A program made the translations under genes and the position numbers. From a virus (Duplodnaviria; Heunggongvirae; Uroviricota; Caudoviricetes), in the IMG/VR virus record IMGVR_UViG_2600254977_000002: a stretch of DNA of 8,063 nt; one strand, written 5' to 3'. This document shows, piece after piece, positions 1 through 8,063 of this stretch. The notes beneath the pieces were generated by a model. It was not told where the DNA came from. It made no database searches and saw only the letters and a list, made by a program, of their open reading frames with translations. How positions within the stretch are numbered: the first letter of the stretch is position 1; each line of letters begins with the position of its first letter.

Positions 1-2595
1 GAACAGACCACCATCGCGCATCTGTGCCTGGATTTCATCACGGGCACCCTTGCGGGCCATGTCATACACCGCCTTCATCATCTGTGGACCTGGCAGACCA
101 TTCGTACCGTCGTTCTGAATCACCACGTTGTTGTTCTGCTCAAACCTGATACCCTCTGAACGCCGCATTTGCGCCGGACTTCCGGTGCCACCGACATAAC
201 CGCCGGTGGCATAGCCGCGCATCAGCCGGTAGAGATTTCCCACGCCAATCCGGCTGGTTGCCTCCTTCGTGAAGACAAATTCACCACGGTGAACAATCCC
301 CGCTGGCTCATATTTGCCGCCGGTTCCCGTAAATCCTCCGGTTGCAAAATGGAGTTTCGCCGCAGCGGCCTGAATGGCTGTACCGCCTGACGCGGATGCG
401 CCGCCACCAACAGCCCCGCCAATAGCGCTGCCGATACTCCCGACAATCCCCACCATTGCCTGCTTAAGCAGAATTTCTGTCATCATGGACAGCACGGAAC
501 GGGTGAAGCTGCGCCAGTTCTGTTCACTGCCGGTCAGCATCGCCGCCATATTCTGCGCAATACCATCAAAGGTCTGCGTGGCAGCACTTTTAACCTGCGA
601 CATACTGTCCGTGGCACTCTCTTCCCACTCACTCCAGCCGGACTTCAGGCCTGCCATCCAGTTCCCGCGAAGCAGGTCTTCAGCCGCCCTGGTCTTTTTC
701 TGCTCTGACATGACGTTATTCAGCGCCAGAGGATTATCGCCATACTGTTCCTTCAGGCGCTGTTCCGTGGCTTCCCGTTCTGCCTGCCGGTCAGTCAGCC
801 CCCGGCTTTTCGCATCAATAGCGGCCCGTTTTGCCCGTTGCTGCTGTGCGAATTTATCCGCCTGCTGCGCCAGCGCGTTCAGGCGCTCCTGATACGTAAC
901 CTTGTCGCCAAGTGCAGCCAGCTGGCGTTTGTACTCCAGCGTCTCATCTTTATGCGCCAGCAGGGATTTCTCCTGTGCAGACAGCTGGCGACGTTGCGCC
1001 GCCTCCTCCAGTACCGCGAACTGACTCTCCGCCTTCCACAAATCCCGGCGCTGCTGGCTGATTTTCTCATTTGCTCCGGCATGCTTCTCCAGCGTCCGGA
1101 GTTCAGCCTGAAGCGTCAGCAGGGCAGCATGAGCACTGTCTTCCTGACGATCGCCCGCAGACACCTTCACGCCGGACTGTTTCGGCTTTTTCAGCGTCGC
1201 TTCATAATCCTTTTTCGCCGCCGCCATCAGCGTGTTGTAATCTGCCTGCAGGATTTTCCCGTCTTTCAGTGCCTTGTTCAGTTCTTCCTGACGGGCGGTA
1301 TATTTCTCCAGCGGTGTCTGCAGCCGTTCGTAAGCCTTCTGCGCCTCTTCGGTATATTTCAGCCGTGATGCTTCGGTATCGCTCTGCTGCTGCGCATTTT
1401 TGTCCTGTTGACTCTGCTGTTCAGCCTTCTTTCGGGCGGCTTCAAGCGCAAGACGGGCCTTTTCACGATCATCCCAGTAACGCGCCCGCGCTTCATCGTT
1501 AACAAAATAATCATCCTTGCGCAGATTCCAGATGTCGTCCGCTTTCTTAAACGCAGCCTCTGCCTTAATCAGCATCTCCTGAGCGGTATCAGGACGACCA
1601 ATATCCAGCACCGCATCCCACATGGATTTGAATGCCCGTGCTGTCCTGTCTGCCCAGGTTTCCAGCGTGCCCATGTTCTCTTTCAGGCGTCGGGTCTGGT
1701 CATCAAACCCTTTCGTTGCGGCCTCGTTCGCCGCCTGCAATGCCCCGGATTCATCGCCGGAACGCTGCAACTGAGCAACATACGCAATCTGCTCCGCCGT
1801 TACGTTATGGAACTGGCGCGCCATCGCCGTCAGCCCCGACGTCGGGTCAGTGGTCAGCTTCCCGAAGGCTTCAGCGACCTTGTCCACCTCCACGCCGGAT
1901 GCAGAGGAGAAACGCGCCACACTCTGGCTGATGGATGCAATCTGAGCCTCACCGCTTACTCCCGCCTTAACCAGTGCGCTGAGTGACTCGCTGGTCTGGT
2001 TAAACGTCAGCCCTGCCGCCTGCCCGGCTCTGGACAGGACCAGCATACGATCTGCCGTCAGACCCGACTGATTGCCGGAAAGGACCAGCGTTTTGTTGAA
2101 ATCGGACAGGGTTGAGTTACCCTGATACCAGGCATACGCCAGCGCACCGGTCGCCACCGCCAGCGAGGTGGCCCCGACCATCGGCAGGGTGATCGCACCG
2201 GCAAGCCCCCGGAACATGGGGATCATCCCGCCGAAGGAGTCCTTAACCTGACCACCCTGTTGCAGCAGGATCAGCCACGGGCTTTGCCCGCCTGCAAGCT
2301 GCGTGGCCACGTCGGTGAACTGTGCAGGCAGCATACGCATGGCGGCTTTATACTGCCCGACGGAACTCCCCGCTTTCTGTGCAGCCAGCGCCNNNNNNNN
2401 NNNNNNNNNNNNNNNNNNNNNNNNNNNNNNNNNNNNNNNNGCCTGTCGGCTCAGCGACTGTTCAACGACTGCCGCTGTTTTTTTCGCATCACTTTCCGTA
2501 CCGGAAAAATGACGCCTGACTCTGGCCATCTGCTCGTCAAATCTGGCCGCATCCAGACTTAAATCAACGACCAGATCGCCTACCGGTTCAGCCAT
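1..2595 (-). CDS. H: Tail tape measure protein (lambda gpH-like); 3' end lies beyond window start; contains a 48-nt N block
   Basis: Hand translation from the ATG at 2595..2593 gives MAEPVGDLVVDLSLDAARFDEQMARVRRHFSGTESDAKKTAAVVEQSLSRQA, matching the recalled lambda gpH N-terminus. The reverse complement of 1..120 gives ...NDGTNGLPGPQMMKAVYDMARKGARDEIQAQMRDGGLF in the same frame (2595 nt = 865 codons), matching the gpH C-terminal region and stopping about 5 codons short of its end. No stop-terminated ORF in this frame appears in the ORF track across 1..2595. The start overlaps the T stop codon (2588..2590). Confidence 0.9.
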   Translation of the reverse strand, partial: MAEPVGDLVVDLSLDAARFDEQMARVRRHFSGTESDAKKTAAVVEQSLSRQXXXXXXXXXXXXXXXXXALAAQKAGSSVGQYKAAMRMLPAQFTDVATQLAGGQSPWLILLQQGGQVKDSFGGMIPMFRGLAGAITLPMVGATSLAVATGALAYAWYQGNSTLSDFNKTLVLSGNQSGLTADRMLVLSRAGQAAGLTFNQTSESLSALVKAGVSGEAQIASISQSVARFSSASGVEVDKVAEAFGKLTTDPTSGLTAMARQFHNVTAEQIAYVAQLQRSGDESGALQAANEAATKGFDDQTRRLKENMGTLETWADRTARAFKSMWDAVLDIGRPDTAQEMLIKAEAAFKKADDIWNLRKDDYFVNDEARARYWDDREKARLALEAARKKAEQQSQQDKNAQQQSDTEASRLKYTEEAQKAYERLQTPLEKYTARQEELNKALKDGKILQADYNTLMAAAKKDYEATLKKPKQSGVKVSAGDRQEDSAHAALLTLQAELRTLEKHAGANEKISQQRRDLWKAESQFAVLEEAAQRRQLSAQEKSLLAHKDETLEYKRQLAALGDKVTYQERLNALAQQADKFAQQQRAKRAAIDAKSRGLTDRQAEREATEQRLKEQYGDNPLALNNVMSEQKKTRAAEDLLRGNWMAGLKSGWSEWEESATDSMSQVKSAATQTFDGIAQNMAAMLTGSEQNWRSFTRSVLSMMTEILLKQAMVGIVGSIGSAIGGAVGGGASASGGTAIQAAAAKLHFATGGFTGTGGKYEPAGIVHRGEFVFTKEATSRIGVGNLYRLMRGYATGGYVGGTGSPAQMRRSEGIRFEQNNNVVIQNDGTNGLPGPQMMKAVYDMARKGARDEIQAQMRDGGLF
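2393..2440. other. Run of 48 N (unresolved or masked sequence) inside the tape measure gene
   Basis: Directly visible as n characters at 2393..2440. Its length is a multiple of 3 and the H reading frame is continuous across it. Confidence 0.99.
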
Positions 2596-5171: not shown

Positions 5172-5525
5172 TCAGCGGCGACGGCTGGCGGCAGGTGGTT
5201 GCCCCCGGTTGAGCCAGAGATAACAACTCCCTCCGTCATCCGGAGAAACACGGTCCACCCAGAACATCTCGCCGTTAATGGTCAGCGTGTCACCACGCCG
5301 TACAGCACAAACCGTATCCGTAAGCACAAATAATGACGGGTTACTTCCTTCAATACGGATCCCACTACTGGCAAAACCCAGCGACTCCGGATCGTCAAAA
5401 ACGCCATGAACCTCGCCGCCACGCTGTGCACCGGAGGTGAACTGCGCACTGATGCCCATCACTTCAACAATCGTACTGTCCACCCCGGCAAGGGCGGCAT
5501 CAAAGGCATTCTGAAAATCACGCAT
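5172..5525 (-). CDS. FII: Head-tail joining protein (lambda gpFII-like), 117 aa
   Basis: From the internal Met at 5525..5523: MRDFQNAFDAALAGVDSTIVEVMGISAQFTSGAQRGGEVHGVFDDPESLGFASSGIRIEGSNPSLFVLTDTVCAVRRGDTLTINGEMFWVDRVSPDDGGSCYLWLNRGQPPAASRRR. It is collinear with recalled lambda gpFII and becomes increasingly similar toward the C-terminus (…FWVDRVSPDDGGSC…). The start overlaps the FI stop (5518..5520). Confidence 0.9.
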   Translation of the reverse strand: MRDFQNAFDAALAGVDSTIVEVMGISAQFTSGAQRGGEVHGVFDDPESLGFASSGIRIEGSNPSLFVLTDTVCAVRRGDTLTINGEMFWVDRVSPDDGGSCYLWLNRGQPPAASRRR

Positions 5526-5892
5526 AAACAGCCATTCCACCATCAACGTGTGTTTTTGCATCTGAGGACATAATCAGAATCACCCGACCAACATCCGCAA
5601 GCTCAACGGATTCCCCCGTTTCACCATCAACGCCACAGAGATGGAGGCAGGTCAGAACTCTGATGCGCGTTAACGCGCCGGATGTTTCCTCACGAACATC
5701 ATGAGCCGCGGTTTCCCGCTCCCGGATATCCATATTCATAACCTGTACATCATCGCCGGATGACTGCATTTCCTCTTCCCATTCTGCCACCCGCTGCGCT
5801 ATCTCTGCGGCACTCCCGGATATATCCGGCTCACGCCCCAGAATCAGGGCCAGTTCATCAAGCCGTTTCAGATTTTGCTCTTTCGTTGCCAT
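5518..5892 (-). CDS. FI: DNA-packaging / head completion protein (lambda gpFI-like), 124 aa
   Basis: From the Met at 5892..5890: MATKEQNLKRLDELALILGREPDISGSAAEIAQRVAEWEEEM..., resembling the recalled lambda gpFI N-terminus (MTKDELIARLRSLGEQLNRD...ELALRVAELKEEL). AGGGGG Shine-Dalgarno lies 6-8 nt upstream. The track start at 5940 is an unlikely upstream extension running through a hairpin. Confidence 0.85.
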   Translation of the reverse strand: MATKEQNLKRLDELALILGREPDISGSAAEIAQRVAEWEEEMQSSGDDVQVMNMDIRERETAAHDVREETSGALTRIRVLTCLHLCGVDGETGESVELADVGRVILIMSSDAKTHVDGGMAVYA

Positions 5893-5904
5893 ATCAGCCC
5901 CCTG

Positions 5905-5935
5905 TGAAAAAAGACACGGGGGCATTTCGCCCCCG
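5905..5935 (-). terminator. Putative intrinsic terminator or attenuator hairpin between E and FI
   Basis: On the minus-strand transcript: 5'-CGGGGGC GAAAU GCCCCCG-3' (7-bp GC stem at 5935..5917, 5-nt loop), followed by UGUC and UUUUUU (5912..5907). It lies 9 nt after the E stop codon and just upstream of the FI Shine-Dalgarno and ATG. Confidence 0.4.
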
Positions 5936-5943
5936 CTCACGGA

Positions 5944-6972
5944 TTATTTCACCTGTACCACCACAAACTCATCCGGGTCCGGCAACACCATCAGCGGCGC
6001 GGACTGCGTCATGGTAAATTCACGGGCGGGATCCCCTACCGTCAGCCAGTGTTTCGGATAACGGGAAGAGGCCACCACACCTTCGGACAACGCCTGAGCA
6101 TCCTGAATGGCACCGTAACAACGGATCCCATCTGCAGCAGTATTCCCCAGAACCAGCATGCCATCTGGAAGATAACGTTTTTCGATACCGTCTTCTGCTA
6201 TATAAGACGTTTTCGCCACCACAATGGCCAGATCGCCGTAATACCCCTTGAAGGACACCACTGCGCCCAGATCTTTCACTGCCGTTTCGAGTTGAGAATT
6301 TGAACCGCGACGGGTATCCAGTTTTTCGCGGAACAGCTTAAAACCATTCAGAAGACGCCAGACGGTACCGTCCATAATGGCAATATTCACAAGACCGCTG
6401 GCCAGGTCGCAGTAGAGGTCAATATCATGTGTAGGATCGAACGTGTCACGATCCTGTTTTGACCACTCCTTACCACTACCCTGAGTGATGTTATTCTTCG
6501 TCGACCTGCCAAAATCGACCTCAATTTTCTCGAACTGGTCTCCTTCCATGGTGTATTTGCCATACAACACAGCATTTACCGCCTGCATTTCTTCCACCTG
6601 GACAATCGCGTGCTCTTCCTGTTTGAGGTTATCGGTAATGATACGCAGACGGCGGTAAGCCGGATCATTCAGTTGAGATGGATCTTCACCAGGAAGGCGC
6701 TCAACCGCCTGCTGGTAATTAAATTCGTGTTTCGGCTTGACGTAGCCCGGACGCAACACGCGGGTTTCACCACCACGATGACGCAGCACTTTTCCTTCAA
6801 CAACCGGGGAGACATAGGCCGCCACCGGCGTTTTTCCGGTAATTTTGTCCAGCATCACCTCTTCGGTATGGAAATTCACCGTACGGCGGAAAAACAGCTC
6901 CAGAAACAGCGCACGAAATTTAACTTTTTGTTCGGTATAACCGAGTAACTGGCGGGTCGTAAACAATCCCAT
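5944..6972 (-). CDS. E: Major capsid protein (lambda gpE-like), 342 aa
   Basis: MGLFTTRQLLGYTEQKVKF...PGYVKPKHE...VEEMQAV...KLDTRRGSNS.LETAVKDLG...GDPAREFTM.QSAPLM...DPDEFV.VQ is collinear along its full length with recalled lambda gpE (341 aa), with many conserved blocks. AAAGGAAC Shine-Dalgarno lies upstream of the ATG at 6972. Confidence 0.93.
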   Translation of the reverse strand: MGLFTTRQLLGYTEQKVKFRALFLELFFRRTVNFHTEEVMLDKITGKTPVAAYVSPVVEGKVLRHRGGETRVLRPGYVKPKHEFNYQQAVERLPGEDPSQLNDPAYRRLRIITDNLKQEEHAIVQVEEMQAVNAVLYGKYTMEGDQFEKIEVDFGRSTKNNITQGSGKEWSKQDRDTFDPTHDIDLYCDLASGLVNIAIMDGTVWRLLNGFKLFREKLDTRRGSNSQLETAVKDLGAVVSFKGYYGDLAIVVAKTSYIAEDGIEKRYLPDGMLVLGNTAADGIRCYGAIQDAQALSEGVVASSRYPKHWLTVGDPAREFTMTQSAPLMVLPDPDEFVVVQVK

Positions 6973-7000
6973 AAATCAGTTCCTTTCATTCAGAAATCAG

Positions 7001-7022
7001 TCAGGCCACCGCGGTGGCCTGA
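7001..7022. other. 22-nt perfect palindrome (potential RNA hairpin or dimeric protein site) in the D-E intergenic region
   Basis: tcaggccaccgcggtggcctga equals its own reverse complement, giving a 9-bp GC-rich stem and a 4-nt CGCG loop in RNA. It sits 8 nt downstream of the D stop and 28 nt upstream of the E ATG on the minus-strand mRNA. Confidence 0.5.
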
Positions 7023-7029
7023 TAACGTG

Positions 7030-7377
7030 TTACGGCAGCGCCGCGTGACTCAGGGCACTGCCAGCAAAGGCGTTGGCCTTTTTGTGTTCATCCACACTTT
7101 CAGGCCAGTGGATTGCCTCCGTCGCAAAGGTTCCCGACTTGTAATACGTCAGCGCCGTCTCTGTGCCTTCAAGCGGCAGTACCAGTATGCCAACCGCACT
7201 ACCGGCTTTCTGTCCGTCCCAGACCACCAGTTTCCCGGTGGCTTCATCCAGCATCAGGGGCGTCAGTGCCGGTGTTGGCGAGGAAATCCCGCTGCTGCCT
7301 GTGGCGGTATGAGCCGGATCATTACCGGCAAAAATACGTACTTCCGCACGCTGTTCAGTGATGGTTTTCGTCACCAT
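7030..7377 (-). CDS. D: Head decoration protein (lambda gpD-like), 115 aa
   Basis: MVTKTITEQRAEVRIFAGNDPAHTATGSSGISSPTPALTPLMLDEATGKLVVWDGQKAGSAVGILVLPLEGTETALTYYKSGTFATEAIHWPESVDEHKKANAFAGSALSHAALP shares the DPAHTAT...TPLMLD...WDG...VGIL...YKSGTF...AFAG blocks with recalled lambda gpD. Strong AGGAGG Shine-Dalgarno lies upstream. Confidence 0.92.
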   Translation of the reverse strand: MVTKTITEQRAEVRIFAGNDPAHTATGSSGISSPTPALTPLMLDEATGKLVVWDGQKAGSAVGILVLPLEGTETALTYYKSGTFATEAIHWPESVDEHKKANAFAGSALSHAALP

Positions 7378-7413: not shown

Positions 7414-8063
7414 TCATGGCATGGCCATGAGCATTTTCACGTCCGCATCACCGTCTGCTGACGTCTGTGCCACGCCACCCTGTACCGCTGCCGGTGAATG
7501 GTTCGCCATGAAATGTTCAAACATGGCGGTTGTGGATGCAGAGACCGGTTCTGCCTTACCTGATCCCGCAGCCAGCACAGCCCGGGCGCTCTCCACTGTC
7601 ATTCCCGGGCAGGCAGCCAGCTGTTCAGCCTGCGCCTCAGCCCCTTTTGCCTCATCCAGTGCCATGATCTGATCACGGAGTGATGGTCCGGCATCCGCCT
7701 GCGGTGAAGCAGCCAGGATCGGGCGGGCTTTTTCCACCGTCATCTCCGGCATCGCCGCCAGCGTTGCCGCCAGTTGTTCACGACCGTTCGCTTCTTCACA
7801 CACCATAATGCGATCGGCTTCACTCTGCGTGGATGCCACCGGCTGCTGCGGTGCCGCCGCGGCCAGAATCGCCCGGGCCTGTTCAACGCTCATGCCCTGT
7901 TGTCCTGCCAGCATCGTGGCAAGCTGTTCACGTCCTTTCGCTTCCTGGCATGTCAGGATCCCCATCACTCGCTGGTTCTCCTGCGCGGCGGCTTCCGTTG
8001 CAGTTAATTGCGGCATAGTGCCTCCTCTGACATTACTGTTCAGCGCCGTGGCCATCACACTGA
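7414..8063 (-). CDS. C: C-terminal part of head maturation protease / nested scaffold (lambda gpC / Nu3-like); 5' end lies beyond window end
   Basis: The translation contains ENQRVMGILTCQEAKGREQLATMLAGQQGMSVEQARAILAAAAP, matching the recalled lambda gpC/Nu3 C-terminal motif ENSRIMGILNCEEAHGREEQARVLAETPGMTVKTARRILAAAP. The in-frame codon at 8061..8059 is AGT with no stop, so the frame stays open to the window edge. The stop is at 7414..7416. Confidence 0.88.
   Translation of the reverse strand, partial: SVMATALNSNVRGGTMPQLTATEAAAQENQRVMGILTCQEAKGREQLATMLAGQQGMSVEQARAILAAAAPQQPVASTQSEADRIMVCEEANGREQLAATLAAMPEMTVEKARPILAASPQADAGPSLRDQIMALDEAKGAEAQAEQLAACPGMTVESARAVLAAGSGKAEPVSASTTAMFEHFMANHSPAAVQGGVAQTSADGDADVKMLMAMP
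7567..7971 (-). repeat. Three tandem in-frame copies of a ~35-40 aa scaffold motif (IMxxxEAxGREQLAxxLAxxPGMTVExARxILAA) within C/Nu3
   Basis: Copy 1 is residues ~30-68 (7855..7971), copy 2 is ~83-117 (7708..7812) and copy 3 is ~130-164 (7567..7671) of the in-window ORF. The spacing is 47-53 codons, and the similarity is also visible at nucleotide level (e.g. GAAGCGAA[A/C]GG[A/T]CGTGAACA[G/A]CT). Confidence 0.8.

Follow-up and report, generated by a model that had tools for sequence, protein, structure and literature searches.

The described systems that come closest to the element analysed here are the intrinsic terminators embedded in antiterminated operons and the stem-loops that stabilize mRNA between cistrons. 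Among the latter are the REP element in malE-malF and the C(UUCG)G hairpins of T4 intercistronic regions. Terminators within antiterminated operons are known from P22/L-like phages, lambdoid late operons and conAn conjugation operons, and the roles proposed for them are insulation from spurious transcription or differential expression (PMC8022706; PMC8955417). Terminator-like hairpins are often seen in phage late operons, where phage genome authors have called their roles unknown (PMC8022706). Q21, the Q protein of phage 21, prevents terminator hairpin formation, and its 'nozzle' also prevents pause hairpins from forming at the RNA exit channel (bioRxiv 10.1101/651190); Q-lambda acts likewise (PMC9388147). 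In reporter experiments, terminators placed a few nucleotides past a stop codon were almost fully repressed by the terminating ribosome (PMC4824070). Terminator hairpins also raise the abundance of upstream mRNA, the upstream RNA being protected from decay (PMC11696848).

The locus considered here is the short spacer between the head decoration and major capsid protein genes of phage 21, shp and gene 7; the corresponding position between the D and E genes of any lambda-like head module is called D|E below. The hairpin at this position is annotated neither in the curated phage 21 record nor in the lambda reference records, and a search of the literature available to the analysis, which included searching by sequence, found no paper describing the lambda or phage 21 D-E hairpin. 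A study of lambda small RNAs (PreS, LPR2 and 6S) covers loci other than D-E. The record of phage mEp237 annotates its own D|E copy as a 'rho-independent terminator'.

Anatomy of the phage 21 decoration-capsid spacer

The window (the whole stretch of 8,063 nt that was analysed) is the head/tail late operon of phage 21 presented as its reverse complement, the mRNA strand being the minus strand. Its segment 6800-7250 (minus) is 100% identical to both M81255, the phage 21 head-operon record, and the complete genome OL657228, and Pfam assigns FI, FII, Z, U, V, G and T to minus-strand open reading frames at lower window coordinates. The features under discussion are collected in Table 1, in which the Pfam matches of shp and gene 7 bear out the D and E assignment that the original prediction had given to the genes around the palindrome.

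Table 1 Features of the phage 21 window, in window coordinates.
Feature	Position	Strand	Details
Tri boxes	~7555-7949	minus	Inside scaffold gene (gp6/Nu3 homologue); M81255 annotation
shp, head decoration protein, lambda D homologue	7030-7377	minus	Pfam HDPD, E 1e-24
shp stop codon TAA	7030-7032	minus	7 nt before the hairpin
Extended helix	6996-7026	minus	RNAfold; 4 extra flanking pairs (GUUA/UGAU, one bulged C)
Perfect 22-nt palindrome TCAGGCCACCGCGGTGGCCTGA	7001-7022	minus	Exact reverse complement, 11+11 nt arms, no gap
3' tail CUGAUUUCUG	6991-7000	minus	5 U in 10, longest U run 3
Gene 7 Shine-Dalgarno AAGGA	6981-6985	minus	RBS annotated in M81255; 16 nt downstream of the hairpin, outside it
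Gene 7, major capsid protein, lambda E homologue	5944-6972	minus	Pfam Phage_cap_E, E 6e-64
Second intercistronic hairpin GCGGGGGCGAAAUGCCCCCGU	5916-5936	minus	Begins 7 nt past the gene 7 stop; followed by GUC, then U6 (5907-5912)
Run of 48 N (masked)	2393-2440		In the tape-measure (H) gene region

The spacer between shp and gene 7 is 57 nt long; the hairpin begins 7 nt past the stop codon of shp, and 28 nt separate its end from the ATG of gene 7, as the original prediction had stated. Read as mRNA, the spacer is UAA-CACGUUA-[UCAGGCCAC-CGCG-GUGGCCUGA]-CUGAUUUCUGAAUGAAAGGAACUGAUUU-AUG, with the hairpin in brackets. The palindrome first described is exact, and the GC-rich stem and CGCG loop proposed for it are confirmed by folding: as RNA it forms a 9-bp stem, six of whose pairs are G-C, closed by the CGCG tetraloop, with an energy of -16.8 kcal/mol. 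The extended helix reaches -18.4 kcal/mol (z = -4.3), and 0 of 200 shuffles fold as well. An Rfam covariance-model scan of the whole window, at E up to 10, returned no match at or near 6950-7060, and a promoter scan returned no promoter-like site in the shp-gene 7 spacer.

The palindrome had also been called unlikely by chance, and the numbers agree: when the window was shuffled 2,000 times with dinucleotides preserved, 7 shuffles had a perfect palindrome with arms of at least 11 nt; analytically, 0.002 are expected per window and 9e-6 in a spacer of 57 nt; and this is the sole perfect palindrome with arms of at least 8 nt across the 42.9-kb phage 21 genome. Most likely, the symmetry over all 22 nt is incidental, the property of a hairpin whose 4-nt loop happens to be self-complementary; a self-complementary tetraloop suffices for perfect DNA symmetry and has a chance of 1 in 16.

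Some further observations concern the surrounding genes and their copies in other records. Within gene 6, M81255 annotates three ~110-bp repeats, the 'Tri boxes' (Tri1, Tri and Tri3), as 'function unknown; putative'. In the 254-kb record of Aeromonas phage AP1 (MT713136.1), the 174 bp at 250152-250325, which carry no annotated feature in that record, match the 5' part of gene 7 of phage 21 at 99.4% identity and may be an assembly chimera or contamination. A lambda-type E gene also lies on many short, low-coverage contigs from unrelated taxa (L097-L112, L135, L137, L139-L156 and others), among them Bacillales, Actinomycetes, Bacteroidota and Rhodobacteraceae; their E proteins are 60-68% identical to gp7, the same as lambda E itself, and most likely represent contamination of sequencing libraries with lambda DNA.

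A hairpin of constant position in lambda-like head modules

D-E spacers were taken from phage records and from one genome per species, duplicates were removed and the best single hairpin in each spacer was located, which gave a survey of 32 non-redundant lambda-like head modules. At a threshold of -10 kcal/mol or stronger, a hairpin is present in 30 of the 32 spacers, compared with 2.8% of 320 control coding windows from the same loci. The spacers come from lambda, N15-like phages, Kluyvera, Enterobacter, Citrobacter, Klebsiella, Erwinia, Serratia, Buttiauxella, Trabulsiella, an Aeromonadaceae MAG, a Vibrio phage and others. The hairpins hold a constant position, and their stems, 6-13 bp long, differ in sequence between lineages (GCCGC/GCGGC, CCGCC/GGCGG, GGGTCGC/GCGGCCC, CAGGCGCTGC/GCAGCGCCTG and GGCCACC/GGTGGCC). 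The phage 21 hairpin (-17 kcal/mol) is the strongest enterobacterial D|E hairpin surveyed, and only that of the Vibrio phage is stronger (13 bp, -21.6 kcal/mol). Providencia, whose D-E spacer is 26 nt long, has no hairpin.

In an unsupervised MAFFT alignment of the stop-to-start regions, the phage 21 hairpin occupies the columns of the lambda terminator, and this D|E hairpin is the sole consensus structure given by RNAalifold, so that phage 21 shares the family's alignment and consensus fold. It also has a single strong sense-strand hairpin between an HDPD gene and a Phage_cap_E gene, the arrangement by which the D|E positional family is defined here. Covariation is modest, since the GCCGC/GCGGC core mostly keeps its sequence: double changes occur in two of the seven consensus pairs, one of them owed to the inner stem of phage 21 (ACC/GGU). 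On this anatomy and homology, the palindrome is very probably the form taken in phage 21 by a D|E stem-loop whose position is conserved. The original prediction had looked to the D-E spacers of relatives for conservation with compensatory changes: structure and position are kept across the family, with stems that differ, but compensatory change is absent within the phage 21 lineage itself.

The lambda hairpin, AAAGGCCGCCTGTGCGGCTTTTTTT, lies at lambda 6097-6125, and the lambda D|E element as a whole, AAAGGCCGCCUGUGCGGCUUUUUUU, has the shape of a textbook intrinsic terminator. Phage 21 shares with the lambda and N15-like D|E terminators the spacer, the strand and the presence of one hairpin per spacer, as well as a GC-rich stem of 7-10 bp, a 4-nt loop, a GGCC/GCC core and the same MAFFT columns. 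It differs from them in the absence of a T6-T7 tract, in the inner stem (ACC/GGU in phage 21, GC/GC in the lambda and N15-like types) and in a self-complementary loop that makes the DNA a perfect palindrome. The spacing differs as well: the hairpin lies 7 nt from the stop codon in phage 21 versus 17-40 nt in the lambda and N15-like types, and 28 nt from the ATG versus 15-21 nt.

These dimensions bear on the suggestion that the palindrome is a processing site for RNase III or another double-strand-specific nuclease between shp and gene 7. The natural substrates of E. coli RNase III are usually helices of about two turns (roughly 20 bp). The phage 21 helix is perfect and intercistronic, as such a site might be, but it measures 9 bp, or 13 bp with a bulge, its homologues are equally short and no Rfam family matches the site. 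It offers neither about two helical turns nor a validated minimal substrate with proximal and distal boxes, and we consider RNase III processing, which the original prediction had listed first among candidate roles, highly improbable.

Terminator features and the degenerate U-tract

Outside phage 21, the D|E hairpin is mostly that of a canonical intrinsic terminator: a T6-T7 tail follows it in 26 of 29 loci, and this shape extends to the N15-like group, Erwinia, Serratia, Buttiauxella, the Aeromonadaceae MAG and the Vibrio phage. The T run after the last G or C of the stem is 6-7 long in the lambda and N15 types and 3 long in phage 21, Gifsy-1 and Trabulsiella guamensis. Gifsy-1 and T. guamensis have strong hairpins of different sequence, and their U-tract is degenerate too. 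From these comparisons, the branch comprising phage 21, Gifsy-1 and T. guamensis appears to have retained the hairpin while its U-tract decayed, and the tail CUGAUUUCUG is a degenerate remnant, or an equivalent, of the U-tract seen after the hairpin in most relatives.

Of the sequence hallmarks of an intrinsic terminator, phage 21 has the GC-rich stem-loop, which lies past a gene and in the transcribed strand (9 bp, -16.8 kcal/mol), and lacks the mostly-U tract, typically of 6-8 nt, directly 3' of the stem. The site passes a loose terminator scan and fails a stricter terminator index. On this index (U-tail score plus hairpin energy per nucleotide, of the d'Aubenton-Carafa type and only approximate, with energies from ViennaRNA) the phage 21 D|E site scores -23 and 26 of the 29 relatives score +7 to +45. 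Among five annotated phage 21 terminators, four score +8 to +49 on the same approximate index and the fifth, tR', scores -17.5, its stem having a bulge of a kind that the scheme does not model. The palindrome had been described as lacking an adjacent U-tract and as not being a canonical terminator. The first statement stands in that the longest U run is only 3, but five of the ten tail nucleotides are U; the second is right for phage 21, where the U-tract is degenerate, but misses that the positional homologues are canonical terminators.

The D|E element is of a known kind, a terminator-type stem-loop inside an antiterminated phage late operon, and what is new is a natural version of it without the U-tract. 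As in other antiterminated operons, the hairpin lies inside a long operon transcribed by a Q-modified polymerase, and phage 21 has several such hairpins (shp|7, 7|FI, I|J and J|stf); unlike the terminators of those operons, the phage 21 copy is not expected by sequence criteria to terminate efficiently.

It could still be a working intrinsic terminator, perhaps a partial or conditional one, that stops polymerases which failed to load Q21 at pR', for instance those reading in or initiating spuriously within the prophage, keeping the capsid gene silent in lysogens, and is ignored by Q21-loaded polymerase. The canonical homologues across the family and the loose consensus scan, which lists the site as terminator-like, speak for this, as do the insulating role proposed in reviews of antiterminated operons (PMC8955417; PMC8022706) and the existence of internal promoters in prophage capsid clusters (PMC7067206). 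Against it stand the U run of at most 3, an approximate index that falls below those of four of the five annotated phage 21 terminators scored and of 26 of the 29 relatives, and the distance of 7 nt from the shp stop, a spacing that almost abolished termination in reporters (PMC4824070). We regard a working terminator in phage 21 as unlikely. For the family at large, the near-universal T6-T7 tract elsewhere argues that real termination, or use of the U-tract itself, has been selected, and because the tract is near-universal in the other lineages, a purely RNA-level role may not be ancestral.

Hairpins on both sides of the capsid gene

The genes of the phage 21 late operon overlap or lie no more than 15 nt apart, except at five spacers of at least 36 nt. 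Hairpins of -15 to -17 kcal/mol are present in four of these five (shp|7, 7|FI, I|J and J|stf), and the fifth, Nu3|shp (36 nt), holds none. Gene 7 and gene J are thereby each flanked on both sides by hairpins of this strength (phage 21 genome 15633-15692 and 19176-19233), and since gene J, whose product is low-copy, is also hairpin-flanked, the hairpins do not simply mark abundant products.

The 7|FI hairpin corresponds to the position between E and FI in relatives, where a hairpin directly follows the capsid gene in about 27 of 30 loci, often as GGCCC-UUCG-GGGCC and frequently with a poor U-tail. Its tail is U6 in phage 21 and weak in lambda, the reverse of the D|E situation. With hairpins at both D|E and E|FI, the capsid gene is bracketed by two across the family, and the frequently weak tails at E|FI indicate that the hairpins, not the U-tracts, are the constant element. 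The idea that a strong terminator at E|FI makes up for a weak one at D|E was dropped, the indices of the two sites being uncorrelated across 29 loci (Spearman 0.01). The gene that follows is delimited differently by different sources: the mechanical list of open reading frames gives an FI-like gene at 5518-5940 (minus) with a GTG start at 5940, overlapping the post-capsid hairpin, and the curated phage 21 record starts it at an ATG at 5892, leaving a 51-nt spacer that holds the hairpin.

The post-capsid hairpin also bears on the proposal that the palindrome adjusts how gene 7 is translated, either from a position ahead of the ribosome-binding site, as a structural insulator or a standby platform, or by slowing ribosomes that leave shp. 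The distance from hairpin to ATG is fixed within groups (28-33 nt for the branch of phage 21, 15-21 nt for the others) and the Shine-Dalgarno sequence is essentially unpaired in predicted folds, both of which would suit such a role. However, the end of the hairpin is 16 nt away from the Shine-Dalgarno sequence, on its upstream side and beyond the core 30S footprint; no sequence feature couples it to the ribosome-binding site; and gene 7 is itself followed by a similar hairpin, after which there is no highly expressed gene. Translation tuning is accordingly unlikely, and with it the regulation of E initiation that the original prediction had considered, given an unpaired AAGGA 16 nt away.

Variation within the phage 21 lineage

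The phage 21-type head module has a match in 1,944 of 5,426 complete E. coli genomes, and 200 loci were examined and reduced to 57 indel-free haplotypes. The outer 8-bp stem is intact in 49 of the 57. Common alleles alter only the loop or the loop-closing pair (CCGCGG to CCATGG, C10T and G14T/C), one rare haplotype keeps a wobble pair (C6T), and rare variants break the stem (G17A, G17T, G16A, T15C and a 1-nt deletion). Among the 57 haplotypes, none has a compensatory double change in the stem. Segregating sites number 4 of 16 in the outer stem versus 18 of 122 in nearby gene 7 coding sequence, a difference that is not significant, so that no extra constraint is apparent at this depth. The population sample neither demonstrates nor excludes selection on the stem, and the structural argument rests on the family-wide comparison.

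These data are relevant to the possibility that the element is a decaying relic, an ancestral D|E terminator that lost its U-tract and left a hairpin without function. The lack of extra stem constraint and of compensatory change among close haplotypes, the rare stem-breaking alleles, the loss of the U-tract in three related lineages and the hairpin-less, 26-nt spacer of Providencia are all compatible with decay. By contrast, most haplotypes keep the outer stem and the common alleles differ only at the loop or its closing pair, a stability of -17 kcal/mol that exceeds every other enterobacterial D|E hairpin surveyed is unlike erosion, and Gifsy-1 and T. guamensis likewise retain strong hairpins, of different sequence, without a U-tract. 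Together these make a functionless relic rather improbable.

The CCATGG allele (window 7011-7012; L051-L053, L089-L091 and others) differs by two adjacent transitions that leave the 22-mer perfectly palindromic. The changed bases are loop nucleotides in the RNA, and a one-step intermediate, CCGTGG, exists (L047); the allele could be due to chance (about 1 in 12) or to a hairpin-templated (template-switch) mutation.

In three contigs, L206 from IMG/VR and L343 and L348 from metagenomes, the region separating shp from gene 7 contains an IS200 element that encodes a 152-aa TnpA and has end hairpins of its own. The insertion point, ..CCTGACTGATT|GTGCACAG.., lies 6-7 nt past the palindrome on its 3' side and is equivalent to window ~6994-6996. 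This place beside the hairpin is a possible hot-spot for insertion, and a polar effect of the element on the capsid gene is presumed.

The exact 22-mer occurs 83 times in metagenomes, always with the same flanks and context, and a search of the phage 21 genome with the 16-nt core, allowing up to three mismatches, found only its own site and two chance-level coding matches. With a single genomic copy and one metagenomic context, the element does not behave as a dispersed repeat of the REP/BIME type or as a multi-copy operator. A role at the DNA level, whether in binding a dimeric protein, in forming a cruciform or as a hot-spot of recombination or insertion, would draw on the perfect symmetry, on the common CCATGG allele that preserves it and on the IS200 insertions nearby. 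That role is opposed by the uniqueness of the site in the 42.9-kb genome, with no half-sites beyond chance and no promoter-like site in the spacer, and by the invariant context of all 83 metagenomic copies (83/83). The CCGTGG intermediate also weakens the appeal to symmetry, as about 1 in 12 single loop changes from it restores the palindrome. Moreover, the hairpins of relatives are mostly asymmetric-looped at the same place, which means that what is conserved is strand-level pairing and not two-fold DNA symmetry. We judge a DNA-level role very unlikely, and the dimeric-protein site of the original prediction, for which repeated half-sites and an adjoining promoter-like site are both missing, is likewise unsupported.

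A candidate decay barrier in the late transcript

The explanation that we favour, and consider probable on balance, is that the palindrome is an intra-operon terminator-type stem-loop, the D|E allele of phage 21, which is read through by Q21-polymerase and then probably acts as a barrier to mRNA decay. Late transcription would start from pR' with Q21-loaded RNA polymerase, and, going by published structural work, the Q21 'nozzle' would block terminator hairpins at the RNA exit channel, so that the site is passed; given this blocking, the D|E hairpin cannot stop the main late transcript. Judging from the spacing, the hairpin would fold behind the polymerase when no ribosome is terminating at the shp stop 7 nt upstream. 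Once folded, it would persist in the mRNA and may present a barrier to exonucleases working 3'-to-5' from a cleavage further downstream, so that the ...C-Nu3-shp segment is protected, and together with the post-gene 7 hairpin it may delimit a relatively stable capsid-gene segment. It could also keep the gene 7 ribosome-binding site free of long-range pairing. Stopping of polymerases without Q21 would probably be weak, as the tail CUGAUUUCUG, the sequence index and the reporter data on the footprint of a terminating ribosome suggest.

The stabilizing mechanism itself is advanced more tentatively. A stability element was among the roles first proposed for the palindrome; it is compatible with the data and is the role preferred here, as a plausible reading of our analysis. 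Like mRNA-stabilizing stem-loops, the phage 21 element is a stable, GC-rich hairpin that directly follows a cistron with high expression, and in many relatives the companion post-capsid hairpin is itself C(UUCG)G. Unlike REP-type stabilizers, the phage 21 hairpin is not a dispersed repeat, being unique in its genome and confined to one context, and its stabilizing role is putative. Several observations speak against a stabilizer: the 57 haplotypes show neither compensatory change nor extra constraint in the stem and include rare stem-breaking alleles, the T6-T7 tract is near-universal in other lineages, gene J is hairpin-flanked too, and the curated phage 21 and lambda records leave the site unannotated. 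The missing U-tract and the 7-nt distance from the stop weigh against efficient termination, and for this reason the RNA-level barrier is ranked first; a weak insulator comes second and a functionless terminator relic third.

Implications for lambda-like phages

A broader possibility, which we raise with some reserve, is that the two bracketing hairpins, D|E and E|FI, have been selected at the RNA level in lambda-like phages, where they might set off a stable or exonuclease-shielded capsid segment within the 20-kb late transcript. The U-tract would then be dispensable, and the 'U-less' variant of phage 21 would separate the function of the hairpin from termination.

Lambda and phage 21 offer a natural comparison, with and without a U-tract at the same position, in two phages that are both genetically tractable and whose Q proteins are structurally understood, and the pair is suited to experiments on what such hairpins are for, be it termination and insulation or the stability of mRNA. 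Beyond this contrast, the element is of an ordinary, expected kind, with a small twist in its lost U-tail. As the phage 21-type module is present in 1,944 of the 5,426 E. coli genomes, any effect of the hairpin on capsid expression would apply widely.
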